A stretch of 64,000 bases of DNA. Origin: a virus. Below the pieces are notes generated by a model that worked only from the letters and a program-made list of their open reading frames with translations, searched no databases and was not told the origin of the DNA. The DNA lies in the IMG/VR virus record IMGVR_UViG_3300028610_001991. One strand, 5' to 3'. Both the position numbers and the translations under genes were made by a program. Numbering within the stretch: position 1 is the first letter of the stretch; each line of letters begins with the position of its first letter. Below are positions 3,210 through 62,877 of this stretch, one piece after another.

Positions 3210-4541
3210 TTAATCTAATGCTACTACAGAACTCTCCATATCTTCATCAGATACGAAACCTTTCTTTTTCAAATACTCCACGCCCCTGGGAGTAATCTGT
3301 CTTCCTGTCTTTAATCTATGTATATAACCAAGTCTATATAGTTCAGGCTCAACGATCTTCTCTATATGTCGTGGATCCTCATACGTAAATTGCGCCATAC
3401 TGTTAAGGCCGACTGTTTGTGGGTATATACTAAAGAGATGCTTAAGAATCTTTATATCTGTTTTAGTATACAGTCCATTTTCATCTAAGTCAAGTACATC
3501 AAAAGCTTCCTCTGTAATACCTATATCAATCTCTTTTTTATTATTCTTTATAGCCACCTCTCTAATTGTCGTAGAACATAAGTTAATGGCTATCCTCGGC
3601 ACCCCTTTTGACCTTCGGGCTACTTCCAGCGCAGCTTCATCCGTTATGCTTTCAACAAAGTCTAGTTTAGATATACAGAACTTCACTACCTCCTTTAATT
3701 CTGAAATGGTATAGAGATCAAGAACAAGCTTGTACAAAAATCTATCGTAAACTGGATTAAGTAGACCCCCAGGGTCAGTAGTAGCTCCAATAATCGTAAT
3801 TGGAGTAAATCCAAACCTCTGAGAGTGGTTTCCTTGTTTTACAGTTATAGTTCGGTCCTCTAGGCATGTTAGCAAATTATTTTGAGCTCTTGGCGCTATG
3901 GTGTGGATTTCGTCTATGAATAAAATATTTACGCTATTACGTTTGGAGCATCTTCTTACTAGGTCTAATACATCCGTATCTTTTTGAATATTGTTACCGA
4001 TGGTAGAAATTACATCTACACCAAGCTCATTAGCAATGATCTGAACTAAGGTTGTCTTACCTGTACCGGCCGGTCCGTTAATAAGGATATGCCCTAAAGG
4101 CTGATTTCTGGCTTTAACTGAGTCTATTGCTATCCTGATCTTCTTAATCGAGTCAACCTGGCCAATAAAGTCATCAAATGTTAGGGGCCTTAACTCATTT
4201 ACTGGCTCTAGATTTTCTATTGTTTTTACCGTTCTTTTAGCTTCTCTTTCAGCTTTTTCCTTTTTGCCTTTTTCTCCATACTCAGTATTTTCTTTTCTTC
4301 TTTTGTCCATACAGCCTTTGCACACACTACCCCATCGGTTACGCTTATAAGTATTTAGTAAAGGGGCCATTATTACATCGTCATCTGATACTTCTCTACC
4401 ACATTCTTGACATTTTGTTGTATTTACTGTCACAGACGGGCCTTCTATTTTTGGATGAAGGAAAAGATCAGATGATACTTTTGATGCATCTTTATCGAAA
4501 CTATCACTAAAGGCATGCCCTGCAGTTTCGCCCATTTCCAT
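3210..4541 (-). CDS. ruvB: Holliday junction branch-migration ATPase RuvB with N-terminal Zn-finger extension
   Basis: LRPLTFDDFIGQ, Walker A GPAGTGKTT, Walker B LFIDEIH, IGATT..G.L..P..DRF, RSKGVPRIA, IE.IVEP.L...G.I.R...GR. Confidence 0.93.
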   Translation of the reverse strand: MEMGETAGHAFSDSFDKDASKVSSDLFLHPKIEGPSVTVNTTKCQECGREVSDDDVIMAPLLNTYKRNRWGSVCKGCMDKRRKENTEYGEKGKKEKAEREAKRTVKTIENLEPVNELRPLTFDDFIGQVDSIKKIRIAIDSVKARNQPLGHILINGPAGTGKTTLVQIIANELGVDVISTIGNNIQKDTDVLDLVRRCSKRNSVNILFIDEIHTIAPRAQNNLLTCLEDRTITVKQGNHSQRFGFTPITIIGATTDPGGLLNPVYDRFLYKLVLDLYTISELKEVVKFCISKLDFVESITDEAALEVARRSKGVPRIAINLCSTTIREVAIKNNKKEIDIGITEEAFDVLDLDENGLYTKTDIKILKHLFSIYPQTVGLNSMAQFTYEDPRHIEKIVEPELYRLGYIHRLKTGRQITPRGVEYLKKKGFVSDEDMESSVVALD

Positions 4542-4544
4542 GCG

Positions 4545-4730
4545 TTACCTCCTTATTATAGATTTTTTCTTAGATGTACTATAGTCTTGTTTACAGCTAT
4601 AACATTTCCCTTTATACTTTTCTCCTTTCTGATGTATAAGTTCAAATTCTGTTTCGCATTTTAAACAATTAGCCTTTATCTTTTTTGGTGTGTGGTCCAT
4701 TTCAAGTACAATTATAATTTCTTTGTTCAA
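4545..4730 (-). CDS. small Zn-ribbon protein
   Basis: CLKC...CYSC. Confidence 0.65.
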   Translation of the reverse strand: MNKEIIIVLEMDHTPKKIKANCLKCETEFELIHQKGEKYKGKCYSCKQDYSTSKKKSIIRR

Positions 4731-9634: not shown

Positions 9635-9994
9635 CTAAGCTACTTTCCCTAGTAATTTAATTACTTCTTTAGCGTTAGGACTATTTTTCTGTACAGCATC
9701 TTCTATCGCTTTCCAGATAGGATCAATACTAACAGTTACATAGGAATATGCGTTTACCGGCACCCTTTTAAATGTAATATTAAACAGAGAGGTTAGGGCT
9801 TTATGGATTTCCGGTATACCCTTAGTAAACCCATTAGCAACAACAATCTTTTTTGTGCTGTCATAAATCTTTTTTGCTGCATTCTCTTTTGCCAGTTCAG
9901 CTTGTAATGTCTCATTGGCTTTTAGGTTAGCCTTCACCTCATCGTTAGCTTGTTTGCTTTTAAGATAAAGTAGTACCTCGTTCCATGTTAACAT
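9635..9994 (-). CDS. hypothetical protein (own promoter motif and terminator)
   Basis: AAGGAG RBS before MLTWNEV; Ala/Lys-rich. Confidence 0.75.
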   Translation of the reverse strand: MLTWNEVLLYLKSKQANDEVKANLKANETLQAELAKENAAKKIYDSTKKIVVANGFTKGIPEIHKALTSLFNITFKRVPVNAYSYVTVSIDPIWKAIEDAVQKNSPNAKEVIKLLGKVA

Positions 9995-10027: not shown

Positions 10028-10061
10028 TGTACTAAAGCTGACTTTCGCCAGCAAAGTCTCA
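10028..10061 (-). promoter_or_regulatory. conserved 33-34 bp motif, copy 1
   Basis: TGAGACTTTGCTGGCGAAAGTCAGCTTTAGTACA on minus strand. Confidence 0.7.
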
Positions 10062-10084
10062 GTAGCGAAAGATAATTCGTTTTT

Positions 10085-10333
10085 TTATCTTTTTTTACCT
10101 TTGAAAGAAAGAGTAAATTCTGCTATTTTGTATTCAAAATTACTTGTTACATGTTTAATACTTTTGCCGGTAAGTAGTTTTTTAAACTCTTCTTCAGAAA
10201 GTATAAAGTTTGTTTCTTCTTTATCAGGGATATAACCTATGGTCATTTTATGTATGATCCTCATTACAAAATTCCTCACTGACCTCTTGATTAACATTCC
10301 ATGAACTATCAACATATTCTTTATCATACACAC
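10085..10333 (-). CDS. hypothetical protein
   Basis: Co-directional; start uncertain. Confidence 0.5.
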   Translation of the reverse strand: MCMIKNMLIVHGMLIKRSVRNFVMRIIHKMTIGYIPDKEETNFILSEEEFKKLLTGKSIKHVTSNFEYKIAEFTLSFKGKKR

Positions 10334-10442
10334 TTGAAGTATTAACGGTGTTCAGCTTTTTCTAATGCGCTTTTAAGATTATTAGCTGATACTGTTATTG
10401 TACCGACAATTGTATATTCTACAGCTATTCGGTATATTTTCA

Positions 10443-10640
10443 TCAATACACCTCACTGAATTGTGTATTAGGATCATCTAGTTCAACTTTAAGTTTATAA
10501 TAATATTCAACATCTTCTTTTGTAGGATCACAGTCTTTTTGTATATCATTATCCAGTACATCTACATCCAGATCAGAGTTTGTTGAGTATACATTCTGAA
10601 CAAGACCACCTTTAATAACTATAATTACCCTATCTTTCAT
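10443..10640 (-). CDS. acidic hypothetical protein
   Basis: GGAGG RBS; VIIVIKGGLVQNVYS..V.VLD.D motif typical of small phage proteins. Confidence 0.7.
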   Translation of the reverse strand: MKDRVIIVIKGGLVQNVYSTNSDLDVDVLDNDIQKDCDPTKEDVEYYYKLKVELDDPNTQFSEVY

Positions 10641-10921
10641 TGTTCCTCCTTATTGTCTTTCCAAGTAACATCAGTATCGTAGTCTTTAAATATACCACCG
10701 TCAGTAGGCACACATTCATTAACATTGAATGCAACTGCGTAACCTAAGCCGTCATCTGCGTATGAAGCTTTTCCATGTGTACCTCCAAAATGGTCAGTTA
10801 TAAGTTCAGCTAAACTAAAAAGAAAATGTAGGTATGAGTCTTGATCATCAATAATCTCCCGATCATGAGTTGCTTTGTGAATAATATCTCCCATTTCTTT
10901 GTCAGTGATTATTTTGCTCAT
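10637..10921 (-). CDS. hypothetical protein
   Basis: ATGA-coupled ORF. Confidence 0.7.
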   Translation of the reverse strand: MSKIITDKEMGDIIHKATHDREIIDDQDSYLHFLFSLAELITDHFGGTHGKASYADDGLGYAVAFNVNECVPTDGGIFKDYDTDVTWKDNKEEQ

Positions 10922-11121
10922 TTCTTTTCCTTTGGAATAATTGTTATTTCATCCTCTGTTGCAGTTATTTCCATATCGTCTTCTTCTTGAATAATCTCAC
11001 CGGAAGTATAACCCTTTACAATTAAATCGGCAATATGTTCTTTAGAAATATCTGTGAGTTCATCTATATCTGTTATAGCTAAGCTCCACCAACCTGTTTT
11101 CATTTTTCTACATTTCCCCAT
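10918..11121 (-). CDS. acidic hypothetical protein
   Basis: Coupled ORF. Confidence 0.6.
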   Translation of the reverse strand: MGKCRKMKTGWWSLAITDIDELTDISKEHIADLIVKGYTSGEIIQEEDDMEITATEDEITIIPKEKK

Positions 11122-11314
11122 TTAATACTCCTGTTTCAAAAGATGTTTCCAATGGAAATAAATCTGGTAAATCACATTCACATACTTTATCAAATATAAC
11201 TGTAGCACCCCTCACTACAAAATCTTCCACTGGTGATTTAAAATCTTCTGTAAAAATTATATCTTGTTGATAGATAAGACTGCGTACTGCACAATGAATA
11301 ATTCTTATTTTCAT
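11108..11314 (-). CDS. hypothetical protein
   Basis: GGAGG RBS. Confidence 0.6.
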   Translation of the reverse strand: MKIRIIHCAVRSLIYQQDIIFTEDFKSPVEDFVVRGATVIFDKVCECDLPDLFPLETSFETGVLNGEM

Positions 11315-11541
11315 CAGTCCTCCAGTGTATGCTCTAAATATGTTATCATATCAAATTCTGGATTAATACCGTATTGTTTACCCAGCTCTCCTTCCACATC
11401 CAATTCGTCTTTAGCTTTTATTTTTTGTATACCTTTAACAACTCTTTTTGCACTTTTCTCTTTCTTATAAACTCCTGCAATATCACCATAAGTGTCAGGA
11501 TAACCTTCAATTACAGTTATAACAATATAAACTTTCATCAT
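11314..11541 (-). CDS. hypothetical protein
   Basis: GGAGG RBS. Confidence 0.65.
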   Translation of the reverse strand: MMKVYIVITVIEGYPDTYGDIAGVYKKEKSAKRVVKGIQKIKAKDELDVEGELGKQYGINPEFDMITYLEHTLED

Positions 11542-11867
11542 TCCTCCTGTGTGTCCGGTACTTCAAACACTCTTGTTCGAGTAACTAATTCAGTTATCAG
11601 TTCTTCTTTTGTATCAAATTCAGCACACCCTTCTATCTGTACAATAGTCCAATTACGGCCAAGAACAGGATAACAGTCTTCATTGTTTTCTCTTTGAAGA
11701 TCATCAGTATTACTAGTCCTATATCTTTCTAATATGTTCTTTAATTTACTTGCAAGCGCACTTTTAGTATTAAATACTATTTCAGAACACTCACTCCATA
11801 GTAACTCTTGATACTCATTTTCACCGTCCTGCGTTTTTACAGTAATTAATAAATATTTCTTAGCCAT
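11538..11867 (-). CDS. hypothetical protein
   Basis: GGAGG RBS. Confidence 0.7.
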   Translation of the reverse strand: MAKKYLLITVKTQDGENEYQELLWSECSEIVFNTKSALASKLKNILERYRTSNTDDLQRENNEDCYPVLGRNWTIVQIEGCAEFDTKEELITELVTRTRVFEVPDTQEE

Positions 11868-11916
11868 TATACCTCCATAAAATAAGTTGCTTCATTAAGC
11901 TCATTTACTAATTCAG

Positions 11917-12168
11917 TTATTTATCCTCAAATGTAAATTGGTCACTTTGTAAGATTTTAAGATCACTCTCAACCGCATCCTCTTCGTTTATTTCCTCCGT
12001 AGTTTCTTCCAGAGTTATAAATGTATTTTTTAAAGAGCTGTGGTTTTCTGAAAATATATCCCGTGCAATACCTTCACTGTTTTCGTTGATCAGTGTTTCG
12101 TCTAATAGTTCATTACCATCACAAGCATAGAGGTATGCTTTCCATGCTTTTACCAGTACCTTAGACAT
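11917..12168 (-). CDS. acidic hypothetical protein
   Basis: Co-directional; D/E-rich. Confidence 0.65.
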   Translation of the reverse strand: MSKVLVKAWKAYLYACDGNELLDETLINENSEGIARDIFSENHSSLKNTFITLEETTEEINEEDAVESDLKILQSDQFTFEDK

Positions 12169-12362
12169 TACCTGCCCCCATGGAAGACATAACTATAATA
12201 GCTGCTTCTTTACGTGAAATTCCGCGTTTCTCATTTTCCTGTTCACATACCTCACAAGCTTTCTTGTATGTATCTCCCCAGTACCAAGGCTCTGCACAAG
12301 AACCATTACCCTTCATAATTTCTTACATTTGAATTTTAATTCTTTCATACTCTCAGCTCCTT

Positions 12363-12761
12363 TTAATTAAAACAGTTAAACCTTAGTGCTTTCTTCTTAA
12401 TACCTTCACCAATATTTGTATACTCTTTATCCATTATCTGTTCAGAGTTAAGCTCCTGTTCAGAGTCGTCAACATGATTGCGGATATAGAATATCTCACC
12501 ACCATAATTAATTGTCTTACTGCTTCTTAGCCCGCCGTTAAGCATTAGTCCAAACTCAACACCATTTTCATACCCATAGTCTCCGGCTTTATTACATATC
12601 TCTTTTAGCTGATCCAGTGAATTAACAGTAATCTGTCTTTTGAAATATTCTGTCATCTGGGCATCAGATAGTTTTGTCCAGTACCCAGGGCTAATTATAG
12701 GAAATAGTGCTTTCAGTCTGAGTATAATTTCTCGTCTACTGTACTTACTTAATTTTTTCAT
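12363..12761 (-). CDS. hypothetical protein
   Basis: AGGAG RBS. Confidence 0.7.
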   Translation of the reverse strand: MKKLSKYSRREIILRLKALFPIISPGYWTKLSDAQMTEYFKRQITVNSLDQLKEICNKAGDYGYENGVEFGLMLNGGLRSSKTINYGGEIFYIRNHVDDSEQELNSEQIMDKEYTNIGEGIKKKALRFNCFN

Positions 12762-12772
12762 ACTTTGCTCCT

Positions 12773-13003
12773 TTACTGCACTATATTAAGAACATGCTGC
12801 CTAAGCTTGCCTGGTATAGCATGCCCGCTGTTTCTACTACATTTAACAGTATCATAACCGTCTGATTCATTAGCTAGTTCTGCTGCCACACCGTGTTTAC
12901 TGATACGGTTTATTATAAATCCGTCATCTACTCTTTTATGTTCAAGTTCTGCTTTACAAACAGGACATTCATACTTCATACTCACCCCCTCAAAACATAT
13001 CAT
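12773..13003 (-). CDS. small Zn-binding protein
   Basis: CPVC...C...H; start probably MKYECP. Confidence 0.65.
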   Translation of the reverse strand: MICFEGVSMKYECPVCKAELEHKRVDDGFIINRISKHGVAAELANESDGYDTVKCSRNSGHAIPGKLRQHVLNIVQ

Positions 13004-13337
13004 TTTCTAATAAACCTTTGTCTATAAACTCAGTAATATCTTTATTGCATTTCGGACATTTAAAGATACCGTAACTATCTCCAGTTAAACCTTTAATACT
13101 GATTTTGTGTTTACAGTGAGGACAGTCCATAAAGGGACGACTTTCAAGACCTAAGTTTGCATTAATAATACTGGTAATAGTAAATTCTTCTGTCCACTCT
13201 TTATGGCACTCATTACATATAACATTACGCCAAGCATTAATATAACTAAAACCGGTATCACTGCCAGTGGTATTTTTGCTTCCACAGTAAAGACAGGTAT
13301 TTGGCATTTTCAAATATTCTTCTATATCAATATCCAT
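12990..13337 (-). CDS. double Zn-ribbon protein
   Basis: CLYC/CNEC and CPHC/CPKC. Confidence 0.7.
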   Translation of the reverse strand: MDIDIEEYLKMPNTCLYCGSKNTTGSDTGFSYINAWRNVICNECHKEWTEEFTITSIINANLGLESRPFMDCPHCKHKISIKGLTGDSYGIFKCPKCNKDITEFIDKGLLENDMF

Positions 13338-13353
13338 ACCGGCCTCCCTTTTT

Positions 13354-13536
13354 CTAATTTTTATACATTAAATCTTCCGCTACTGATAAATCAAACTTAC
13401 CCTCAAACCAGTGCCATATTTCTTCCCTGTGTGTACCAACACCAAAATGTAAAAATCTCTGTTCTATCTCCTCGTCTTCATTTATTGGTATATCACCTAA
13501 TCTTAACCATAGCTTTTTTGCTTTCGTATGCATCAT
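13354..13536 (-). CDS. hypothetical protein
   Basis: LW..LGDIP.N....IE..FL.F..GT.REEIWHWFE conserved-looking phage motif. Confidence 0.7.
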   Translation of the reverse strand: MMHTKAKKLWLRLGDIPINEDEEIEQRFLHFGVGTHREEIWHWFEGKFDLSVAEDLMYKN

Positions 13537-13703
13537 TTGCTGTCTGTTATATCCCAGTCTTTTATTTCAGTATCTTCGATTTCAGCATTATCAGTATTAC
13601 TGATGAAGTCGTAATCCATTTCCTCAAGCACTTCGTTAATATCGATACCTTTGTTTGCTCTGATTATTAATCGTACCTTTACATCAACATATACTTTTCT
13701 CAT
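13533..13703 (-). CDS. 56-aa acidic protein (not in ORF track)
   Basis: AGGAG RBS; MRKVYVDVKVRLIIRAN...DWDITDSK; TGATG coupling. Confidence 0.65.
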   Translation of the reverse strand: MRKVYVDVKVRLIIRANKGIDINEVLEEMDYDFISNTDNAEIEDTEIKDWDITDSK

Positions 13704-13726
13704 ATTTATCTCCTACATTGATTAAA

Positions 13727-13918
13727 TTATTCGCAACTTCCACAATGCTGCCAATCACAGTGATAACAGTTATTCCCGCAATAACCCATACGCTCTCCGT
13801 CTAATTCATATCCACAATCAGGACATATGGATACATTACACTTTAAACAAAAAATAGAACAACGGTCTGCTTCATACTTAGTTCCACATCCTTTACATAT
13901 AATGGTTTCTTCATCCAT
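13727..13918 (-). CDS. Cys-rich Zn-finger protein
   Basis: Multiple CxxC in 63 aa. Confidence 0.65.
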   Translation of the reverse strand: MDEETIICKGCGTKYEADRCSIFCLKCNVSICPDCGYELDGERMGYCGNNCYHCDWQHCGSCE

Positions 13919-13919
13919 C

Positions 13920-14393
13920 TTATTTGTTCCTCAATACTGCTTCTAATATTTCAACAGCTTCTATGGAACCCCATTCTTTCAGTTCATTAATTGCATATTT
14001 AATACCGTCTTTCAGTTTATCAACTTTATTATCCCAGACAATTTCCGGATGTTCAACATACCCGTCAGTATGTATCCTGAAACTACCACCACCAAATTGG
14101 CCAGGATGCATTTTGTCACAAGTAAAAGCATTTCCAAATATAAGATAAGGAAGTTTATTTTTCTGTATAAGTTTACCCAATGCTGTTAAAAAGGGTTCAG
14201 GCAAATTGTTTTCATCTCCGCAGCCCCCCGCATACATGTAAAAACTTTTGTGTTTTTTATAATATTCAAATGTAAATCCGTGAATATTACATTCATCTTC
14301 AGATTGCTCTGCTAGCCTTATCAGTATATCCGCTTCCTCTTTAGTTGCTTTTAATGCCTGTGCTGGCGTACATTGCACATAGTTATTAGCCAT
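13920..14393 (-). CDS. hypothetical protein
   Basis: GGAGG RBS; MANNY start, AFTCDK..PGQFGGG motif. Confidence 0.75.
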   Translation of the reverse strand: MANNYVQCTPAQALKATKEEADILIRLAEQSEDECNIHGFTFEYYKKHKSFYMYAGGCGDENNLPEPFLTALGKLIQKNKLPYLIFGNAFTCDKMHPGQFGGGSFRIHTDGYVEHPEIVWDNKVDKLKDGIKYAINELKEWGSIEAVEILEAVLRNK

Positions 14394-14590
14394 CAGTCCT
14401 CCCCATTTACATGGTCAAGAAATTCTCTGTGTGTTGAGTACCTTTCAAATATCTGTTCAAGTATATCAGCTTTCAATATCCAGTGTCCTTGTTCTACCTT
14501 TTCCCCGTGCTTAATTATTTCAACACTTTGATCATGGAATAAATCTAATACAGCCCGCTGTTCCTTTTTAGTTAGCTTATATACTCTCAT
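14393..14590 (-). CDS. hypothetical protein
   Basis: Coupled ORF. Confidence 0.6.
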   Translation of the reverse strand: MRVYKLTKKEQRAVLDLFHDQSVEIIKHGEKVEQGHWILKADILEQIFERYSTHREFLDHVNGED

Positions 14591-14653
14591 AAGACTTGTT
14601 CCTCAAAATCAAATATTTCAATTTCTTCATCGCTGCTGCTGTATAGACAATCA

Positions 14654-14839
14654 CTAGTCATGTTTTTCCTCTACAACATGACCACATTCACCACAGCAGT
14701 AACAAGAGCTATAGTCTTTTCCAATGCTCAACTTAGCATAACACTTACCATCCCAAGCCCTAGGCTCAACATAGCGGGTATATATTTTATCAACTTTATC
14801 TGGATATTTTTTGCATTTTGGACAGTATAAGTATTTCAC
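14654..14839 (-). CDS. small Zn-ribbon protein
   Basis: CPKC...CGEC. Confidence 0.65.
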   Translation of the reverse strand: MKYLYCPKCKKYPDKVDKIYTRYVEPRAWDGKCYAKLSIGKDYSSCYCCGECGHVVEEKHD

Positions 14840-15876
14840 TATTCACCTCTCGTTACTAATTGCTTTTTGTCAACACCGGCAGCAGCCAGCATTTTCTGCA
14901 TAAAGGCTACTTGTTTATAACTGTCAATTTCTTCTGTACCTTCTGGAACAAGACCGAAATACTCACCTTGAAAACCGGCCATAACTTCACCTGGCGAGTC
15001 TTTATAATCATCAAAGTCATCACTCTTAACTGCTCTGCAAAATAATTCAGGCCTGAACCAGTATTTAACGGGTAGCTTTTGTATATTACCGACACTGATT
15101 TGAACATACCCAAGATTATGAAAACCACTTGTATCTCTCCATTTCCAGTTTTCCCGTACAATGTTCATTACAATTCGTGCTTTATTGATAAACTGTTTTG
15201 TATATTCTGCAGCATAACCGGCATATGTTTTCTCAAAACCAAATACACGGCGTGTATCATCATCAACATCTTTCAATATTTCCCGATTTATCTCGTTCAT
15301 TAATTTTGTCTTTGAGTTTATAAACGAAATAAATGTCCAGTGTCTTATACGTTCTTCCAAATCTTTAATATCCGGTAACACTCTACCTTCACGAATATAC
15401 ACTTGTGGACAAAGCAAAAACTCACCTTCATCACGCAAGGTTATTTTTGTATTCGGTAACTCTTTAGATATTTGAATGAGTGTTAAATATACCATCATAG
15501 CATTTAGTTCATTACCGCCGACTTTGGTAGACCCACTTGTTTTACTCCGGTCATCATCTTTGAGATAAACTAACTTTTCCGATGCAAGCTGTTTCACAAT
15601 GTCAATATGATTTTTACCTTCACTCCCAAGCTCATTGTATCTCTTTTCAATATGTTCCTCGCTTTCAGCTTTTCCTTCACCTTCTATATTCCAGCTTTTT
15701 TCTTTCCAGTAAGGATAATAGCCGTACACATCAAGGTCGAAATTTTCGCAAGTCCATAGCTTACCAACCTCTCCCGTGTTTAATCTTTGTGAATTATCAA
15801 ATATGTAAAGTGCTTCTCTATCAGTAAAACTCTTTCCGTTCAACTTCTCAATATCATAGTGTAATGTTCTTCCCAT
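14839..15876 (-). CDS. hypothetical protein (345 aa)
   Basis: Long ORF, largest unassigned gene of the early block. Confidence 0.85.
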   Translation of the reverse strand: MGRTLHYDIEKLNGKSFTDREALYIFDNSQRLNTGEVGKLWTCENFDLDVYGYYPYWKEKSWNIEGEGKAESEEHIEKRYNELGSEGKNHIDIVKQLASEKLVYLKDDDRSKTSGSTKVGGNELNAMMVYLTLIQISKELPNTKITLRDEGEFLLCPQVYIREGRVLPDIKDLEERIRHWTFISFINSKTKLMNEINREILKDVDDDTRRVFGFEKTYAGYAAEYTKQFINKARIVMNIVRENWKWRDTSGFHNLGYVQISVGNIQKLPVKYWFRPELFCRAVKSDDFDDYKDSPGEVMAGFQGEYFGLVPEGTEEIDSYKQVAFMQKMLAAAGVDKKQLVTRGE

Positions 15877-16083
15877 CCTTTACCCCCTAATTTAAAATAC
15901 TTGATTCTTTTGCAATTATTCTAAGTTTATTACCAGTTAATTTCTTCCGTAACCATTTATGATATTTTTTTATCATCAGTAGTATTAATACCGAACTGCT
16001 CAGGTATTGAAGTACCTTCCATATAAACTGCTACATACAATCCTATTTCATATAGTTGAGTAATAACTTTGATTCTCTTCTTT

Positions 16084-16290
16084 TTATCTACGTAAGTCGT
16101 TACCATACTTGCTCCTGTTAATCTTTTTATTTAAGTCTGCCTCGTCAATTAATACTTCTTGCAAATCATCATCAAGCCACATCAAACAACCTTCTTTTTG
16201 ACATAGAGGACAGTCCTCCCTACCTATATCAACAAATAATTCTGTATCACAATTATTGCATCTTACATAATCAGCCCAATTTTCACCCAT
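16084..16290 (-). CDS. small Zn-ribbon protein
   Basis: CNNC...CPLC. Confidence 0.65.
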   Translation of the reverse strand: MGENWADYVRCNNCDTELFVDIGREDCPLCQKEGCLMWLDDDLQEVLIDEADLNKKINRSKYGNDLRR

Positions 16291-16492
16291 TTTTATGCTC
16301 AGCTAAGTAATCATCCACTTTTCGTAGGTGATAAAATACATGGTTTTTATCTGGTAGATTTTCAATATTCTCATATTGCGGGTCATCAGTATCAATACCA
16401 GTTATTTCTTCATAATGCGCACATTCTTCTGAATAAGAATAACTGATAATCTCGATTATAGATTTTATAATATCATTTGGTATTTCCATCAT
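16283..16492 (-). CDS. acidic hypothetical protein
   Basis: GGAGG RBS before MMEIPND. Confidence 0.6.
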   Translation of the reverse strand: MMEIPNDIIKSIIEIISYSYSEECAHYEEITGIDTDDPQYENIENLPDKNHVFYHLRKVDDYLAEHKNG

Positions 16493-16664
16493 TATCCTCC
16501 GTGTAATAACCCTTATCATCAGTATTAACGAGTTGACCCTCAAAGTATGTGTTATTTTCATAAAACCCAATAACTTGAAATTTACCGTTTTCATCAAGTA
16601 TAAGAAGTGCTCCGATAGAGAATATCTTGTCACCAGCTTTTAAGTAATGTTTTTTACTTGTCAT
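16473..16664 (-). CDS. hypothetical protein
   Basis: AAGGAG RBS directly after the conserved motif. Confidence 0.65.
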   Translation of the reverse strand: MTSKKHYLKAGDKIFSIGALLILDENGKFQVIGFYENNTYFEGQLVNTDDKGYYTEDNDGNTK

Positions 16665-16678
16665 ACTTTTGCTCCTTC

Positions 16679-16711
16679 TGTACTAAAGCTGACTTCCGCC
16701 AGTTTGTCTCA
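16679..16711 (-). promoter_or_regulatory. conserved 33-bp motif, copy 2
   Basis: TGAGACAAACTGGCGGAAGTCAGCTTTAGTACA on minus strand. Confidence 0.7.
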
Positions 16712-16925
16712 AGCCAGCAGAAATTGCTTACCGGTTTTCTTACTGTAACCGAATAAACAACCGTTACCATTGCCTTCTTCATCACAACTGGCATATATAA
16801 CTACGCCATTATCAAACTCAATAGCTGTTGTCGGATTATATGTATCGTTTTCCCAACCTTCATTTGCTAATTCTTTATCGGTCATTGGCCGTACCTTTAT
16901 ATGTTCTGGCTATTATATTTTCCAC
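16709..16925 (-). pseudogene. frameshifted small phage gene
   Basis: AGGAG RBS plus GTG start is out of frame with VRPMTDKELANEGWE...IYASCDEEGNGNGCLFG body. Confidence 0.5.
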
Positions 16926-17155
16926 TATACTAACTCCTTTAAATCGGGTATTGTAACTTGGTCAGGGTTTTCCTTTGTTCCTACAAATACTGAATACCCT
17001 ATATCGTCAAGTTTATAACCAATCCCTAATAGAAAATCAACTGCTTCTCTTTTTGATTTAAACTTTCTTATATTACCGTTTTCACTGTCAAGAAGAAATT
17101 CTTTAGAGTTTAATGTGATGTTCTCAATGTGTTTGCTTATAACAATATTAAGCAC
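16925..17155 (-). CDS. hypothetical protein
   Basis: GGAGG RBS. Confidence 0.65.
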   Translation of the reverse strand: MLNIVISKHIENITLNSKEFLLDSENGNIRKFKSKREAVDFLLGIGYKLDDIGYSVFVGTKENPDQVTIPDLKELV

Positions 17156-17846
17156 TTATTGCCTCCCTTATTTCAAGAGGAGCATTACCTTTTATCTGTG
17201 CTTTGAGCTTTTTATTATGTTCCTCTAACTTATTTTTTATCTCACAGTTAATCTCACCTTTAGCTGAAGGAAGTAAATCGCTCTTTTCAAAATCATATCC
17301 GTAGTATCCCCAGCAACCACCTTTCTCATTACCTTCCGGATCTTCAATCATATACCCATATACATCGCCTGCACAGTACTGGTCATAGGTTTCTACTTCA
17401 GCAGTTAATACCTGTTTAGCTTTCTCAAGCATAACTTTTGATACTCTTTTGGAGCTACATTTACCGTCTTTATAACTGCCACAACATTCCAGTATTTTCT
17501 TTCTGGTAGTATAGGTAAACCCTATCTGCCCACTGTCAAAATGTGCGTGCCCCTGTGGTAGTCCGCACCCATAAAAATTACCGATTTTAATATGAATACC
17601 GGAATGGTCATACATATAAAGCGGAGAAATCAAGACAGCTCCTTCCTCAACAAGATACTTATACAATTCTTCCCAACTGTCAAACATATCAGATGTGAGC
17701 TTTGTTTTATCTCCCAGTGTGTGTCTCCCATGAAAGCAAACCATAACCCCAAGATTATCCCATTCTCGTGGACTTTCATTAATAGTGTCATCAGGATAAA
17801 TGTTAATCTTATAACCTTTGTGTTCAATTGTTTTTATACTATCCAT
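17148..17846 (-). CDS. conserved phage protein
   Basis: AGGAG RBS before MDSIKT; ESPREWDNLG.M.CFH..H.LGD, PLYMYDHSG, DSGQIGF, Y..G.VYGY, CWGYYG motifs. Confidence 0.8.
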   Translation of the reverse strand: MDSIKTIEHKGYKINIYPDDTINESPREWDNLGVMVCFHGRHTLGDKTKLTSDMFDSWEELYKYLVEEGAVLISPLYMYDHSGIHIKIGNFYGCGLPQGHAHFDSGQIGFTYTTRKKILECCGSYKDGKCSSKRVSKVMLEKAKQVLTAEVETYDQYCAGDVYGYMIEDPEGNEKGGCWGYYGYDFEKSDLLPSAKGEINCEIKNKLEEHNKKLKAQIKGNAPLEIREAISA

Positions 17847-17847
17847 A

Positions 17848-18555
17848 TTATGCTCCTTTGTTTTTGTTATACCATTTAATAAACTCAACCACTGCTTTGT
17901 AAACTGCTTTTTGTGTACTTTCACCATGTTCCATTACAATAGTTTTATTTGAGCGCAATTTAAGTATATCGCAATGACATTTGGTTATTCTAACCATATA
18001 ATCACGCATATCTTGTATCTTCTCTGCTACAGGCATTAACCAACCCCATGAAGTATCATAATCATCATGCCTAAAATCCGTGTATTCCACACCCATAAAC
18101 TCTGCTATAAGTTTATTATCTTTGTTCATATTAGCTACTGTTTGTTTATACCACTTAATAAACGTAACTACGGTTTCAAAAGTAGCTTGTAGCTTATTTG
18201 TACTTTGACACCATATCCACTTTTTTAATATGACTTCTTTTGTTCCACCATCATCTAAGTCCTCATCATAAAAAGTATCTACTCCACATCCATTTTTTCT
18301 TATATTTACAACAAAAGAAGTATACTCATTTATTTTTAATGTTTCTATCTTCTCAACTACCGGCATTAACCAATCCCATGAAGAGTGGTAGCTTGTTGAT
18401 TTACAAAAATCTTGTATAACCTTTTCAGGAGTAGAGCCTGTAACTGATAACCAGGGCTGTTTTGACAGGCTATAACAATCGGGATTTACTAATGTGGGTT
18501 TCAAACCCATAAACTCTACTATTAATTTGTATTCAGCTGTATTCATACTATCCAC
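17848..18555 (-). CDS. protein with two tandem copies of an LIxEFMG/SWDWLMPVxEKI domain
   Basis: Internal duplication visible in protein and DNA. Confidence 0.8.
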   Translation of the reverse strand: MDSMNTAEYKLIVEFMGLKPTLVNPDCYSLSKQPWLSVTGSTPEKVIQDFCKSTSYHSSWDWLMPVVEKIETLKINEYTSFVVNIRKNGCGVDTFYDEDLDDGGTKEVILKKWIWCQSTNKLQATFETVVTFIKWYKQTVANMNKDNKLIAEFMGVEYTDFRHDDYDTSWGWLMPVAEKIQDMRDYMVRITKCHCDILKLRSNKTIVMEHGESTQKAVYKAVVEFIKWYNKNKGA

Positions 18556-19162
18556 TTACAGCCTCCTTTAGTTTTATATACTCATTGGCATATATACTCT
18601 CTATTACTTTGTCGTAAAAATAGTCTTCATCAAGATATTCTGTATCGCAGTAGAATTGTAAAATAGCGCCCAAGTGATGAGTACCTAAATTACTATAATT
18701 CTCTGTTTTATTTTTCCAATCTAAAGGTGAGTTAGAATAACCAGGTATAAACCCGTCACAACCAGTATAGTGTGACACAAGATAGTTCAACCACTCATCT
18801 TTGTGTTTTTTCAGATAATTAATAATCCATTTCTGTAGAGAAGTTTTACTGTGTACGTGTATCTCAATATCTATTGCGTCATTTCTGAAATTATATTCTT
18901 TCGGAGAAATAACCTGCTGCATAACAATCTTTTTAATTGCAGGTATCCCTTCACTTAGAGTAGCTGATAAAATATCAACAAACCTTGTGCACACATCTTT
19001 TTCGTATGCTCTATAGTCTATATCCAGGTCATCATAAGTATATTCTTTTCCTTTTGGCGCATTTTCATTTAAGTATTGAAGTTCATCTTCATCACCATTA
19101 AATTCCCAGATAGTATTATAAAATCCACTGAATACCGGAGCCCATGTTTCTATTTTATTCAT
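18548..19162 (-). CDS. conserved phage protein (acidic)
   Basis: PVFSGFYNTIW, SPKEYNF..D.I, Y..CDGFI.GYSN motifs. Confidence 0.8.
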   Translation of the reverse strand: MNKIETWAPVFSGFYNTIWEFNGDEDELQYLNENAPKGKEYTYDDLDIDYRAYEKDVCTRFVDILSATLSEGIPAIKKIVMQQVISPKEYNFRNDAIDIEIHVHSKTSLQKWIINYLKKHKDEWLNYLVSHYTGCDGFIPGYSNSPLDWKNKTENYSNLGTHHLGAILQFYCDTEYLDEDYFYDKVIESIYANEYIKLKEAVSG

Positions 19163-19165
19163 TTC

Positions 19166-19504
19166 TTAGTCCCTCCCTTTTAATCGTTTTATATTAAATC
19201 GTTTATACTCCTCAACAGAGTATTTATCTTTAGCTTTTCGTATTGCACCTTTCCGAGTATATGCTTTTATGAACTGACAGGAACAGCTGTCACCATAAAA
19301 GAAAGTCCATTCACGTCTATATACCCAGAGAGGCAGTACACGAAATAATCCCTGACCGTTAATAAAATGTTCATGTGTATAATCATAATTACAGTACACG
19401 TATAACCAGCCTTGCTCAATAGTAATTCTACCTCTGTGCAGTTTTAATTGGTCGATTAATATATAATGCAGAGCAATAACACACAGTAGTATAGTGATAA
19501 TCAT
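19166..19504 (-). CDS. hypothetical protein
   Basis: N-terminal hydrophobic segment. Confidence 0.55.
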   Translation of the reverse strand: MIITILLCVIALHYILIDQLKLHRGRITIEQGWLYVYCNYDYTHEHFINGQGLFRVLPLWVYRREWTFFYGDSCSCQFIKAYTRKGAIRKAKDKYSVEEYKRFNIKRLKGRD

Positions 19505-19716
19505 TTGTTCACTCGCTTCTCAAATTGTTCTTGATTTTCAACATACCAAATACCTTTTAATCTTTTACAGATTTTACCAACATCTTGTTTTAATACACGC
19601 CCTAATGGTTCAAATAGGTATTCAGTATGTGTATGCCGACAATGCTCACATTCAACTTTTATTGGAAAATTATCCCTACGCCCAACATCTTGTTGTTTAA
19701 TTATATATCGATTCAT
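19501..19716 (-). CDS. hypothetical protein
   Basis: CxxC; coupled. Confidence 0.65.
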   Translation of the reverse strand: MNRYIIKQQDVGRRDNFPIKVECEHCRHTHTEYLFEPLGRVLKQDVGKICKRLKGIWYVENQEQFEKRVNK

Positions 19717-19892
19717 TTACATATCCTCATTATATCAACAAACATTATACCAACAAGCATTATATCACCGTTCCATTTTATATTATCTGGATTATCCTCG
19801 TAATATATTCTGCCCCACTGCTCCTGTATGTAATTATAATCACCTTGAAAGATAATTCCATTCTTATCGATTATTGCATATTGGCCTTTCAT
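19713..19892 (-). CDS. hypothetical protein
   Basis: AGGAG RBS before MKGQY. Confidence 0.55.
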   Translation of the reverse strand: MKGQYAIIDKNGIIFQGDYNYIQEQWGRIYYEDNPDNIKWNGDIMLVGIMFVDIMRICK

Positions 19893-20263
19893 ACAATTTG
19901 CTCCTTGTTGTGTAATACCGAACATTCCTTTTTAGAAGGAATACCTTTCTTTTTACCCTCCAGAATATCGCATATCAGCCTATATGTATCTGTTGTTTGC
20001 TGATAATAGGTTTTTTCATCATCCCTACAGTTACCATCATGGATTTCCCGTGCATTCCAGTCTCTTTCATCAAGTATCTTCTGCTTTAATGAAACACAAC
20101 TATAATACCCTATAAATCCTTGTCTGCTGTAATGAGCAATAAACCCAGATTTAATATGCAGCCAGTCATAAGCTACCTCTGTTAATAGCTCAATATCAGT
20201 ACAGGCCAATACAATACTTCGTACAATCTTATTAATAATAAATTGTGGTTCTGGTTCTAACAT
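19889..20263 (-). CDS. hypothetical protein
   Basis: GGGAGG RBS. Confidence 0.65.
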   Translation of the reverse strand: MLEPEPQFIINKIVRSIVLACTDIELLTEVAYDWLHIKSGFIAHYSRQGFIGYYSCVSLKQKILDERDWNAREIHDGNCRDDEKTYYQQTTDTYRLICDILEGKKKGIPSKKECSVLHNKEQIV

Positions 20264-20305
20264 TATCCTCCCGATCAGTCTTTAAAATTTTATAGCATAT
20301 CATAC

Positions 20306-20551
20306 TTATTTCGCAGGTAAAAACTTAACTTCTCTACCGTTAATATGTGTACCCTCAAGATGGCCACTTACAAGCACATGACTGCCCGTCTTTAAATAAC
20401 GAATACAGTTTTCTGCCAGTTGATTTGTTACACGAACATTAATGGTCTTGTTTTCCTTATTCCGGACATCAATTGTAAAAAAGCTGTATTCACCTTCGTT
20501 AGTTACATCACTTGCTAAATGCCCTTCAATAACTACAAGATTTAAGTTCAT
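20306..20551 (-). CDS. ssb: single-stranded DNA-binding protein (minimal OB fold, no acidic tail)
   Basis: N.VVIEGHL..D, F.I.V, LAENC..YL.TGS.V.VSG.L, V.FL. Confidence 0.8.
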   Translation of the reverse strand: MNLNLVVIEGHLASDVTNEGEYSFFTIDVRNKENKTINVRVTNQLAENCIRYLKTGSHVLVSGHLEGTHINGREVKFLPAK

Positions 20552-20784
20552 ACTATGCTCCTTGTTTTTTTATTCCACCATTCATCATTTGCAAACGGTA
20601 AATCCAGCCATGTTTTATTATCAACATTACTTATGAATAACGAGGTATTGGTATAGAACGGATAATTATCTTTTAACCACTGTTCAACTCTCGGTGTATA
20701 GCGGACATACAAATCCGATGCATGAGTATCAAAGTCCTGCTCATTTACATCAGTATGTTTTATCAATTCGGCTTTTAAATCCAC
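20548..20784 (-). CDS. hypothetical protein
   Basis: DTHASDLYV..T, LDLPFA.D.WW motifs. Confidence 0.7.
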   Translation of the reverse strand: MDLKAELIKHTDVNEQDFDTHASDLYVRYTPRVEQWLKDNYPFYTNTSLFISNVDNKTWLDLPFANDEWWNKKTRSIV

Positions 20785-20966
20785 TGTACCCTCCTTTTCG
20801 CATTTAAGTATTTTACAGTAGCCTGTTTAAAAGTAAGTCCTTTATCCATGTAATACTTAGTCCGAACCAATTGAAAGAAATCCAACCGTGCAGTCAGGCA
20901 AGCGTATTTAAACTGCTTTAAAGTTAATCTATTATTAAACGAAACTGTTCCGAATATTATCATCAA
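20775..20966 (-). CDS. hypothetical protein
   Basis: GGAGG RBS. Confidence 0.55.
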   Translation of the reverse strand: MMIIFGTVSFNNRLTLKQFKYACLTARLDFFQLVRTKYYMDKGLTFKQATVKYLNAKRRVQWI

Positions 20967-20997
20967 TCCCTCCGCAGTTCATTATAATTACCCACTT

Positions 20998-21204
20998 TCA
21001 TACACCCTCCAGGTTAGCCTTTAAAATTTCAATAATCCCCTTTACACCTCCACTAATACCGGACACATTCCCATTAATATGGGTCACGTTATGAACCTCA
21101 TTCAAGCAATCTGAGCATGGCAAGTCTTTATGTTTACAGTATAGGTGTGTTGGTTGTAATAATGTTAGCTGTCTTTTAATTCTCTCATCCATTTTATTTT
21201 TCAT
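20998..21204 (-). CDS. hypothetical protein
   Basis: GGAG RBS; Cys/His cluster. Confidence 0.6.
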   Translation of the reverse strand: MKNKMDERIKRQLTLLQPTHLYCKHKDLPCSDCLNEVHNVTHINGNVSGISGGVKGIIEILKANLEGV

Positions 21205-21281
21205 ACACTCTCCAGATTAGCATCTTATAGTTTATATCTATTTATCTAATAGAAGTCCATTAGACCACTATTACATAAATA

Positions 21282-21320
21282 GAAAGGGAGAGAAAGGATA
21301 AACTCTCCCCCTCCCTTTTA
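21282..21320 (-). terminator. intrinsic terminator
   Basis: Minus strand AAAAGGGAG...CTCCCTTTCTATTT after gene 21345-21599. Confidence 0.65.
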
Positions 21321-21344
21321 TCACTTAAGACTTAGTATCTAGTA

Positions 21345-21599
21345 CTATGCAGATACAGTCAGGACTTCGTTCTCTCCAAGTTTATCTATTTGTGTATCAT
21401 AGTTACCATCAGAGAACTCTTTTAGTACATCAGCATACCTAAGTATAGCTGCAATTTTAGCTTTACCTAAACTGAACCCACCTTTAGTAAAATTACCAGA
21501 GATACGTACTACAGGTGTACCGTTCATAGAATAGAACTTCTCTAATTTAGGCTCTATTATAGCAGGCTTACTTGACGTGGTTGTTTTAACAAGTTTCAT
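21345..21599 (-). CDS. small hypothetical protein (own promoter motif and terminator)
   Basis: AAGGAG RBS; FSLGKAKIAAIL motif. Confidence 0.75.
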   Translation of the reverse strand: MKLVKTTTSSKPAIIEPKLEKFYSMNGTPVVRISGNFTKGGFSLGKAKIAAILRYADVLKEFSDGNYDTQIDKLGENEVLTVSA

Positions 21600-21723
21600 G
21601 TTATGCTCCTTTTAAAAATGTATATGTTAATTATGATGAAAACATAGCGTCACCATAATAATAACCAAAGTCGTAATTGCTTACAAACAACTGAAGTATT
21701 GTTGTAATAATTGCTGCACTTTA

Positions 21724-21756
21724 TGTACTAAAGCTGACTTCCGCCAGCAAGTCTCA
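21724..21756 (-). promoter_or_regulatory. conserved 33-bp motif, copy 3
   Basis: TGAGACTTGCTGGCGGAAGTCAGCTTTAGTACA on minus strand. Confidence 0.7.
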
Positions 21757-22036
21757 AACCAAAGTTGACCATTGTTATCAACAACTTATGAACACTACTG
21801 GTACACTACCCCCATAGAAAAAGAGAGTAAAGTACAGTAAGTATATACATATAAAGAATAATTATAACATAATAACAGTAATATACACAGAGAGAGGAGG
21901 GAGGGGTACACATAAAGCCTACACTGATTTAGTATACTATACCTTAGTATAACCTATATCCATCCATACAGTTTATTAATATCTCCGGTATACCCATAAC
22001 CATCTATATTCTTATTAACATCTTATAAAAACATCC

Positions 22037-22187
22037 ATAGACAGCTTATAGACAACATGTGACTGTCTATAGATCAGCCTATAGACAGCTTATAGGCAGC
22101 TTATAAATAACCATAGATCAGCCTATAGACAGCTTATAAATAACCATAGATAGCTTATAGACAGCTTATAGACAACATACGACTGTC
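22037..22187. repeat. array of ~12 phased 10-12 bp direct repeats (consensus ATAGACAGCTT)
   Basis: Units start at 22037, 22048, 22069, 22081, 22092, 22103, 22113, 22125, 22136, 22146, 22157, 22168. Confidence 0.9.
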
Positions 22188-22435
22188 AACGCTAAGGGAA
22201 AAGCCGGTCAGCCGCCCCCACACCCCTGTCCTTCTGATCCCGCTATACCCTTACACTTTTTTTAGTGTTCAGCTGTAGATTAACCAATAGCTCAACCATA
22301 GTTCAGCCTACACCCTCCCTACCTTAGCATAAAAGGTAGAGAGGGAGATAAGCTTAGAGGAGGGAAGTATATTAACCGTTACTGTTATACTAACAGTAAG
22401 GTCATCTGTTATATAGTATATGTATTTTACCTGCG

Positions 22436-22680
22436 CTTTATGTACTATAGCTGACTTCCGCCGGTTTGTCTCAAACTGTAGCTCTACCGGCTATCAGCAG
22501 AAAATGATTCAACACGTCATTCTGCCGACTATCGGCAGTTTGCTGTGACACGTCATTTAGCCGCACTTTATGTACTATAGCTGACTTCCGCCGGTTTGTC
22601 TCATCCTTACGTCAATAACGTAAGGATGATTCAACACGTCATTCTGCCGACTATCGGCAGAATGATATGACACGTCATTA
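22436..22680 (-). repeat. tandem pair of ~130-bp modules (33-bp motif copies 4 and 5 plus hairpins)
   Basis: Motif at 22441-22473 and 22571-22603; shared TCATTCTGCCGACTATCGGCAG and ACACGTCAT elements. Confidence 0.9.
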
Positions 22681-22821
22681 TGGTCACTTCTAACATAAGC
22701 GTAAATAGAGTAAAACACACCTATTTATCCTGTATTTTGCTCTATTTATGCTTATAAGATGCTATTTAGCATACACTTAGCTACTATACTCTAATAATAA
22801 CAGCTTTAAGTCTATACTACG

Positions 22822-22998
22822 TTATAGAAAGATATCTATCTCTCTAATATCGTCCAGTATAATAGTATGTTTGTACCGTGGATGTATATAGCCTTTTTTC
22901 TTGTAATACCTCTTAAGTATCATTAACCTATCGGCCTGGATTATACCAATAGTCTCTTTACCCTTATTCTTAACCTCTATTATTTTGGTTAAAACCAT
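22822..22998 (-). CDS. 58-aa basic protein between the two module pairs
   Basis: AGGAGG RBS before MVLTKIIEVK. Confidence 0.65.
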   Translation of the reverse strand: MVLTKIIEVKNKGKETIGIIQADRLMILKRYYKKKGYIHPRYKHTIILDDIREIDIFL

Positions 22999-23040
22999 TA
23001 TACCTCCTGTTGTATTATCAGCAGTTATGATAAATAACCG

Positions 23041-23222
23041 CACTTTATGTACTATAGCTGACCTCCGCCAATTTGTCTCATCTTTACGTTAATAACGTAA
23101 TAATGCTATGGTACGTCATTCTGCCGACTATCGGCAGAATGATATGACACGTCATTTAGCCGCACTTTATGTACTATAGCTGACCTCCGCCAATTTGTCT
23201 CAAACTGTAGTTCTGCCGATAA
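23041..23222 (-). repeat. second tandem pair of modules (33-bp motif copies 6 and 7)
   Basis: Motif at 23048-23080 and 23170-23202; same hairpin TCATTCTGCCGA-CTA-TCGGCAGAATGA. Confidence 0.9.
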
Positions 23223-29943: not shown

Positions 29944-30160
29944 AGGTTCGTTTTTATAGGGGGTCATGGTGAAACGTATCTAAAAATACGAAGGTTCGTA
30001 CTATAGGGGGTCATGGTGATTTATAGGAAGGTCGGGAAAAACGTATCTGAAAATATATCCGGTCTCTTTTTACTCTATAATGTATGTCCGGTCTTCTTTT
30101 ACTCTTTTTATAGAGGGTGGTCGAAAAAAGCGTATCTGAAAATATGGCGGGCACTACTGT
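29944..30160. repeat. cluster of imperfect direct repeats at the divergent strand switch
   Basis: TATAGGGGGTCATGGTGA x2, CGTATCT(G/A)AAAAT x3, CCGGTCT..TTTTACTCT x2. Confidence 0.8.
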
Positions 30161-30428: not shown

Positions 30429-30457
30429 TTGACAATACTGTAATTATGTTATATAAT
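30429..30457 (+). promoter_or_regulatory. consensus sigma70/sigmaA promoter
   Basis: TTGACA-17-TATAAT at start of plus-strand block. Confidence 0.9.
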
Positions 30458-45201: not shown

Positions 45202-45256
45202 CTCTCTATTACTATATATCCTCATTTTGTAAAAAAAGTTAAGTACTTTTTTTTGG

Positions 45257-46326: not shown

Positions 46327-46355
46327 TTGACAATTTAACATATGTAGTATATAAT
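46327..46355 (+). promoter_or_regulatory. consensus sigma70/sigmaA promoter
   Basis: TTGACA-17-TATAAT ahead of the structural block. Confidence 0.9.
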
Positions 46356-62797: not shown

Positions 62798-62826
62798 TAG
62801 ACAAATTCTGTTTTATAGTGTATAAT
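62798..62826 (+). promoter_or_regulatory. sigma70-type promoter with upstream 11-bp tandem repeat
   Basis: TAGACA-17-TATAAT; TGTTGATAAAC x2 at 62774-62795. Confidence 0.8.
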
Positions 62827-62877
62827 TGTTTATAGAGAGAGACAGTACGGCGGAAATAAATAAAAAGGAGAGGATAT

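Follow-up and report, generated by a model that had tools for sequence, protein, structure and literature searches.

A repeated intergenic 33-bp motif in a block of small genes of an uncultured large phage: a candidate phage-specific promoter class

The stretch of DNA analysed here, referred to as the window, comprises 64,000 nt of IMG/VR record IMGVR_UViG_3300028610_001991 and corresponds to bases 27426–91425 of a single phage contig of 180,316 bp, with a G+C content of 34% and a completeness rated at 96%. The same phage is also present on another contig of 187,060 bp. Positions are given in window numbering unless stated otherwise. The subject of this study is a 33-bp motif found repeatedly in a long block of roughly 87 minus-strand genes, most of them small, which extends from position 29821 down past position 1. 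Approximately 40 proteins of this block were scanned against Pfam and PHROGs and almost none were matched, the exceptions being RadC, DUF2958, a dCMP deaminase and an AAA+ protein. Among cultured phages, the terminase is closest to that of Bacillus phages, for instance Slash and Staley (30% identity), and plasmid prophages of Bacillota, e.g. c-st, show 22–28% identity. Because of these terminase relatives and the strong, AGGAGG-type ribosome-binding sites of the genes, a Bacillota-like host is likely. The phage is long-tailed, unrelated to the T4-type phages and probably a phage of Bacillota.

The motif, TGAGAC-N5(6)-GGCGRARGTCAGCTWTAGTACA, was found in seven copies in the whole contig, all on the minus strand and within 13 kb. 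A scan with the 33-nt consensus returned six copies without mismatches, starting at 16679, 21724, 22441, 22571, 23048 and 23170, with none expected from 100 shuffles. The seventh copy, at 10028, has the same 22-nt core with two substitutions and one additional base between TGAGAC and GGCG. According to a Markov estimate, 7e-8 occurrences of the 22-nt core are expected by chance. When the whole contig was searched with an nhmmer profile of the seven copies, these scored 39–52 bits and the next best match 4.7 bits; the family is all-or-none, without degenerate members in 180 kb. A first-pass annotation, made from the sequence alone, had listed seven copies on one strand, and the whole-contig scan confirmed exactly these seven. 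All of them lie between called genes and are co-oriented with the 87-gene block, as had been claimed, and no copy in random orientation or inside a gene was observed elsewhere in the contig. The annotation had also called the co-oriented genes early, a label to which only their nature as small ORFan genes points.

Three copies stand alone. The copy at 10028–10061 (minus strand, as for all seven; 34 nt, core GGCGAAAGTCAGCTTTAGTACA) is located 33 nt upstream of the ATG of gene 9635–9994. The copy at 16679–16711 abuts the GAAGGAG ribosome-binding site of gene 16473–16664, whose ATG follows 14 nt downstream; the TGA of TGAGAC in this copy is the stop codon of a 58-aa open reading frame (ORF, 16709–16885), and the 44 nt between this ORF and the next ATG are taken up by the motif. 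The third solo copy, at 21724–21756, is situated 124 nt upstream of an 84-aa gene (21345–21599), and the unit from copy to gene is closed by an intrinsic-terminator-like hairpin of 14 pairs on the minus strand (21283–21318), the sole strong terminator in the region.

The other four copies, at 22441–23202, fall within a 1.8-kb stretch that holds only one small ORF (58 aa, 22822–22998). The copy at 23170–23202 lies 122 nt upstream of the copy at 23048–23080 and is identical to it over 43 nt. The latter is the sole promoter-like site ahead of the 58-aa ORF, 49 nt upstream of its ATG, and a hairpin (23079–23105) abuts its TGAGAC. The copy at 22571–22603, with an 11-bp hairpin (22596–22634) abutting TGAGAC, is located 130 nt upstream of the copy at 22441–22473. 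Both of these face a non-coding stretch of about 840 nt with an array of iterons (ATAGACAGCTTAT-type units, 22037–22200), downstream of the copy at 22441 and upstream of that at 21724, which is a candidate origin or centromere. The statement that the copies precede ribosome-binding sites therefore had to be restricted to four of them, with distances to the downstream ATG of 14, 33, 49 and 124 nt; for those at 23170 and 22571 the next element downstream is another copy, and the one at 22441 faces the gene-less stretch.

The sequence around and between the four clustered copies is a repeat mosaic (periods of 122, 130 and 477 bp), in which neighbouring copies are identical to one another over 33–43 nt. 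The mosaic holds perfect 12-bp hairpins with 3-nt loops as well as 11–13-bp hairpins abutting TGAGAC, and some of the promoter-plus-hairpin units are gene-less. One perfect 12-bp hairpin (23116–23142) is found between the copies at 23170 and 23048, recurs at 22639–22665 and is present in decayed form at 22517–22547. Hairpins flank the clustered copies only; none is associated with the solo copies.

Upon pairwise comparison, every pair of copies was identical at 19–22 of the 22 positions of the core and at all six of TGAGAC, and the only freely varying positions are the 5–6 bases separating TGAGAC from GGCG. For the three solo copies, the 40-nt flanks agree no better than by chance (4–16 of 40). 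Because the core and TGAGAC are maintained in all pairs while these flanks are not, the pattern argues for selection acting on about 28 bp and not for a remnant of duplication. The motif is real, statistically solid and sharply defined.

The motif was observed in this phage exclusively. No matches were found in IMG/VR, the JGI metagenomes or 185,579 species genomes, and an origin from the host or another phage was rejected on these grounds. Close relatives of the phage were not found in IMG/VR or in phage and plasmid collections. Relatives known by TerL include a 63-kb contig (68% identity), a 156-kb contig (57%) and a genome designated G001 (59%), which is syntenic only for approximately 36,000–144,000 in window numbering and is without the motif block.

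Each copy contains a -35-like GAGACW (3–4 of 6 positions matching the consensus) and a -10-like TWTAGT (4–5 of 6), separated by 17 bp, or by 18 bp in the copy at 10028, and the layout proposed in the first-pass annotation, GAGACW-17/18-TWTAGT, was correct. In a promoter consensus scan, a score of 9 of 12 was obtained for each of the four clustered copies. A purine is present 7 nt past TWTAGT in 7/7 copies, and in three copies an ATG with a ribosome-binding site follows at 14–49 nt (14, 33 and 49). A single indel is present in the family, precisely in the interval that separates TGAGAC from GGCG, where it gives 18 instead of 17 bp; this placement fits two recognition modules with a sigma-70-like spacing tolerance. 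The strand and location of the motif, its -35/-10-like pair spaced by 17/18 bp and the closeness to ribosome-binding sites make a promoter reading plausible; start activity we only infer.

The spacer, GGCGRARGTCAGC, is invariant, with a G+C content of 69% as opposed to 34% for the genome. Perfect TTGACA-N17-TATAAT promoters were found three times in the contig (0.11 expected), at 30429–30457, at 46327–46355 and at contig position 164226–164254 (136801 in window numbering), all intergenic on the plus strand and heading plus-strand gene blocks. From these sites it is clear that the phage makes use of the host polymerase with a canonical sigma factor. The spacers of these three promoters are unrelated to one another; ordinary promoters of this genome thus do not conserve their spacers, which supports the earlier remark that the spacer of the motif is more conserved than sigma-70 needs. 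As canonical promoters are present and their spacers are unconserved, unlike that of the motif, the seven copies can be regarded as a class separate from the ordinary promoters of the genome, and plain sigma-A recognition does not explain them, also in view of the T that the three solo copies have at position -11 (see below).

A number of known site types were compared with the motif and rejected. TATAGTA as a general -10 box of the phage was not enriched upstream of genes. Sigma-54 promoters have the consensus TGGCAC-N5-TTGC, with a distance of 11 from G-24 to G-13; in GGCGGAAGTCAGC the distance from GG to GC is 10 (GG-N9-GC) where 11 is needed, and TGG is missing in two copies. The spacing is wrong for an extracytoplasmic function (ECF)-type promoter (TGAGAC-N12-GTC), judged against the consensus. 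For a MerR-type promoter, TTGAGA-19-TWTAGT is present in four copies, but the dyad is only GAC-N12-GTC and PF13411 was unmatched. A hairpin promoter of the N4 type, or a structure of the motif itself, was dismissed since the seven copies, folded as DNA, were no stabler than shuffled sequences (z -1.4 to +1.2); a mini-hairpin, CTGGC-GRAA-GTCAG, is present in the solo copies only. Known RNA families were not matched in Rfam at E≤1 between 9000 and 31000, nor was a tRNA found there. The Spo0A '0A box' (TGNCGAA) inside GGCGRAA is exact in the copy at 10028 only and was set aside.

Parts of the motif also occur by themselves, which was observed directly for both halves. The pattern GAGAC-N5-6-GGCG is found eight times in the genome, namely in the seven copies and in a lone GAGACAGTACGGCGGAA at 62839–62855 (chance 0.0025–0.019). 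This upstream half, GAGACA-N4-GGCGGAA, is on the plus strand in the leader of a 62-aa zinc-ribbon ORF (62878–63066). It starts 12 nt past the TATAAT of a sigma-A-type promoter, TAGACA-17-TATAAT (62798–62826, plus strand), located after the portal gene and just upstream of the half-site, which spans approximately +6 to +23 of that promoter. The partial echo that the first-pass annotation had reported after the promoter at 62826 is therefore real. Judging from this position, a protein bound at the half-site would block polymerase at the canonical promoter. In G001 a canonical promoter is present in the same place after the portal gene. The zinc-ribbon ORF, with four cysteines and encoded on the plus strand after the portal gene, is missing there in G001. 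A lone downstream half, CTATAGTACAT, is located at 4574–4584 (minus strand), 36 nt upstream of the AAA+ gene 3210–4541; with 0.26 expected by chance, it is weak evidence of modularity. The stand-alone occurrence of both halves suggests that the motif combines two elements, a box for protein binding and a start-proximal core.

A protein that could read the motif was searched for in the 180-kb contig. The domain of T7-like RNA polymerases, PF00940, was unmatched at E≤1, with T7 gene 1 as control giving 9.9e-110. The domains of multisubunit RNA polymerases PF00623 and PF00562 (Rpb1/Rpb2) were unmatched as well, the catalytic motif DxDGD is absent from all ORFs of ≥150 aa, and no match was obtained to sigma-70 regions 2 and 4 or to TIGR02937. 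There is, in short, no recognisable phage RNA polymerase or sigma factor among the families searched. The distant relatives G003–G007 (loci L113–L120; TerL 33–37%) have one or two genes for factors of the sigma-70 family, of which one is immediately adjacent to the terminase genes. Homologues of these sigma factors were not detectable in this phage or in G001. Pfam and PHROGs scans of about 90 proteins yielded no regulator, and the ESM Atlas gave nothing usable for the 84-aa and 58-aa ORFs; a weak HTH_11 match (E 0.0034) was obtained in ORF 2531–3193 in the protein scan.

Because no phage polymerase or sigma factor was found, a different polymerase is less likely, and the more likely reader is an accessory protein with sequence specificity that acts on the host polymerase. 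The first-pass annotation had offered either a bound phage factor or a different polymerase: the bound factor is the best reading, to which the half-site at 62839 adds support, and the polymerase has lost ground. A sigma-like factor without recognisable homology may exist, or the gene of the reader may lie in the missing ~4% of the genome.

Taken together, the motif is tentatively interpreted as a composite promoter combined with a site for a putative sequence-specific factor, a reading that we prefer while rating it somewhat short of an even chance. The start-proximal module, C-TWTAGT-ACA, would provide the -10-like element and the start region for the host RNA polymerase. The upstream module of 23–24 nt, TGAGAC-N5/6-GGCGRARGTCAG, would occupy the -35 position and the entire spacer and would be read base by base by a putative protein, most likely phage-encoded. 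This factor would recruit or activate the polymerase at otherwise sub-optimal promoters, defining a temporal class of the MotA or p4 type; alternatively, it might gate the motif promoters as a repressor. The same factor could block the canonical promoter at 62798, where the half-site is found just after the start point. The four clustered copies would then be part of a recombination-shuffled array of promoter-plus-hairpin cassettes. The tandem copies at 22571 and 22441 would fire towards the iteron array and may drive non-coding transcription into an origin or centromere. T4 origins use middle promoters, with which this pair may be compared, and it would likewise resemble the annotated T7 promoters phi1.1A/B. 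The start of transcription at the motif, the binding of a protein and the choice of activation or repression are all steps that we infer only.

A precedent for such a composite promoter is known from phage T4, in which a phage-specific box bound by MotA replaces the -35 element beside a host -10 element (PMC2988021). As in the T4 middle promoters, which operate by sigma appropriation, the phage box would replace or overlap the -35 region at a fixed distance from a host-type -10 (PMC2988021, PMC6755090), and in both phages a gene class is defined without an RNA polymerase of the phage's own (here, none detected). The MotA box differs in being short (9–10 bp) and degenerate and in its combination with an excellent -10, whereas the box described here is ~24 bp long, near-invariant and paired with an imperfect -10-like hexamer. 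The copy numbers also differ, with about 60 middle promoters in T4 and seven copies of the motif.

Several observations weigh against this interpretation. At the -11 position, where A is normally essential, the three solo copies (10028, 16679 and 21724) have a T (TTTAGT), and no other register gives A-11 together with T-7 in all seven copies. A sigma-A holoenzyme should poorly tolerate T at -11, even with an activator. T4 middle promoters, for their part, demand an excellent -10 (PMC2988021). Promoter classes read by an additional factor usually show graded matches, and this family is all-or-none. The copy at 21724 is separated from its gene by another sigma-A-like candidate, TTGTAA-17-TATTAT. 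With regard to the factor itself, MotA (PF09114, MotA_activ) was unmatched at E≤1 (AsiA was not searched), as were MerR_1 (PF13411) and HTH_3 in the genome. Among HTH_3, MerR_1, HTH_17 and MotA_activ, the only match contig-wide was a weak one to HTH_17 (excisionase/MerR superfamily), in an ORF of 97 aa located far off on the plus strand (L047:1492-1785; contig 18065–18358).

Among the other explanations, one that is unlikely but deserves to be weighed sees the motif as a stoperator-like, asymmetric operator. A monomeric phage repressor bound there would silence the gene block by preventing initiation or elongation, possibly with the phage in a plasmid-prophage state, and the -10-like part would be incidental or belong to some copies only. 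The sites are asymmetric, form a discrete near-identical family, lie in short intergenic gaps and are co-oriented with transcription, all of which this explanation would account for. Phage P1, with its dispersed asymmetric C1 operators, is likewise comparable. In cluster A mycobacteriophages, the stoperators bound by monomeric repressors of the L5 gp71 type are similarly asymmetric, conserved and oriented with transcription; those of L5 are 13-mers, present more than 20 times in promoters and short intergenic spaces and active in an orientation-dependent manner (PMC9283540). The copy at 16679 is found within an operon of tightly packed genes, the half-site at 62839 is positioned as expected for a roadblock, and the ParB-like and actin-like genes, the iteron array and a terminase distantly related to those of plasmid prophages (c-st) would suit a plasmid-prophage state. 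The known asymmetric operators of both kinds are, however, 13–17 bp in length and present at 14 to more than 20 sites genome-wide, whereas 33 nt are conserved here and the sites number only seven, all within 13 kb of the 180-kb genome, plus the half-site. A repressor candidate is lacking, with no XRE-type helix-turn-helix in the HTH_3 search of the contig, and tandem pairs with nothing to regulate between them would be odd for operators.

Slightly less probable again is the proposal that the copies are mobile cassettes similar to PeSL (promoter-early stem-loop) elements, the promoter plus stem-loop motifs of T4-type phages. The copies would be ordinary early promoters for the host polymerase that need no special factor, kept uniform by duplication and recombination, and would serve as exchange points for the shuffling of small ORFan genes. 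Like the motif, PeSLs are repeated composite motifs located between genes in ORFan-rich regions (plastic and early, as may also be the case here), with a conserved sequence between the -35 and -10 positions (often the stem-loop itself) and with hairpins, here at least at the clustered copies; mosaic repeats and gene-less units are seen in both cases and may point to recombination between copies (PMC2839356; PMC4122927). The block is rich in ORFans, with nearly all tested proteins lacking a Pfam or PHROG match, and the cluster, with its 122-, 130- and 477-bp repeats, perfect hairpins, 'empty' promoter-hairpin units and mutually identical neighbours, would fit such shuffling. In two distant jumbo phages that also have the 345-aa gene of the block, conserved intergenic motifs of other sequence likewise form dense families of their own. 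The differences lie in the promoter elements and in the folding. PeSL promoters match the sigma-70 hexamers and their conserved spacer is a G/C stem-loop terminator, but the motif here forms no significant hairpin and is off-consensus, with GAGACW and three times T at -11, despite the perfect consensus promoters of this phage. Moreover, the solo copies, 5–7 kb apart, share only the sharply bounded motif, which is hard to obtain by gene conversion.

It is more doubtful still that the copies are promoters for an unrecognised phage sigma-like factor or RNA polymerase, either without detectable homology or encoded in the missing few kb. Such a sigma-like subunit or polymerase of a new fold would read the contiguous 22-bp site plus TGAGAC, would drive a host-takeover block and might also prime replication at the adjacent iteron array. 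The T7/SP6 promoter layout is CACTATAG. Promoters of T7-family polymerases form, as this motif does, a discrete family of near-identical, all-or-none sites with contiguous conservation over about 22–23 bp, ending in TATA-G; the 22 contiguous bases conserved here would fit that layout, with a G+C-rich part followed by TWTA and a G as possible +1. The T at -11 would be harmless to such an enzyme, and the copy at 16679 would yield a 5-nt leader before the ribosome-binding site. The completeness of 96%, and the presence of the same phage on the 187,060-bp contig, would leave some room for an additional gene. On the other hand, the cognate polymerase gene (PF00940) was not found, and Rpb1/Rpb2, DxDGD, sigma-70 regions 2 and 4, TIGR02937 and a homologue of the sigma factors of the distant relatives were likewise not detected in the searches described above. 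The motif also differs from T7-type promoters in the additional upstream TGAGAC at variable spacing, and this 1-nt tolerance fits a bipartite site of the sigma type better. Other sites acting at the DNA or RNA level are given only a slight chance.

Other repeated motifs were encountered in this phage. A second private motif of about 45 nt, AAAAAAGTACTTAAC-T7-ACAAAATGAGGATATATAGTA, is present in three copies, 16–153 nt upstream of gene blocks: at 45212–45233 on the minus strand and, on the plus strand, at contig positions 164319–164340 and 175840–175861 (136894 and 148415 in window numbering). Ahead of the replication block, this motif is found about 70 nt past a perfect TTGACA-17(TG)-TATAAT promoter. 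At the head of the minus-strand block (29944–30160, read on the minus strand), three tandem repeats of TTTTCAGATACG-N-CGACC-N-CCTATAAA were found, with CCCCCTATAGTAC between two of the three; these may represent another promoter-like class or a feature of a genome end.

Two actin-like proteins are encoded by the phage, one of the Volactin family and one ALP/Alp7A-like (54654–55667 and L001:13223-14335, both on the plus strand), and a gene for a ParB-like protein (ParB_N) is located at 43486–44412 on the minus strand. Together with the iteron array, these genes hint at plasmid-like maintenance or at intracellular positioning of the DNA. In G001 (L112, contig 82840–83240) the palindrome GGTACCAATGGTACC occurs four times upstream of the homologue of the ParB-like gene and is likely an array of the parS or operator type. 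In a 291-kb phage (IMGVR_UViG_3300029288_000057), a 21-kb locus (L123) contains at least 15 copies of CTCTCCCTCTTTCC-N10-14-CTTTATATATT before plus-strand genes. This word belongs to a different private, promoter-like family. Given the motif families of the two jumbo phages mentioned above, highly uniform regulatory words that are private to one phage and located in blocks of small genes look like a recurring theme rather than an oddity.

The most likely reading of the motif is that of a phage-specific promoter class to which a box for protein recognition has been added. This kind of element is already known in principle; the rigidity of its sequence is unusual. For uncultured large phages, annotation mostly proceeds gene by gene, and the programmes of their transcription are unknown. 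In this phage, which otherwise uses textbook host promoters, one sharply defined DNA word marks a 13-kb ORFan block. With this word as a starting point, the protein reading it could be sought and a temporal gene class delimited with no previous knowledge. Should the motif be no more than a shuffling cassette, the PeSL idea would be extended beyond the T4-type phages. If its reader is a new activator, repressor or sigma-like factor, it would represent a new way to redirect a Bacillota-type RNA polymerase.

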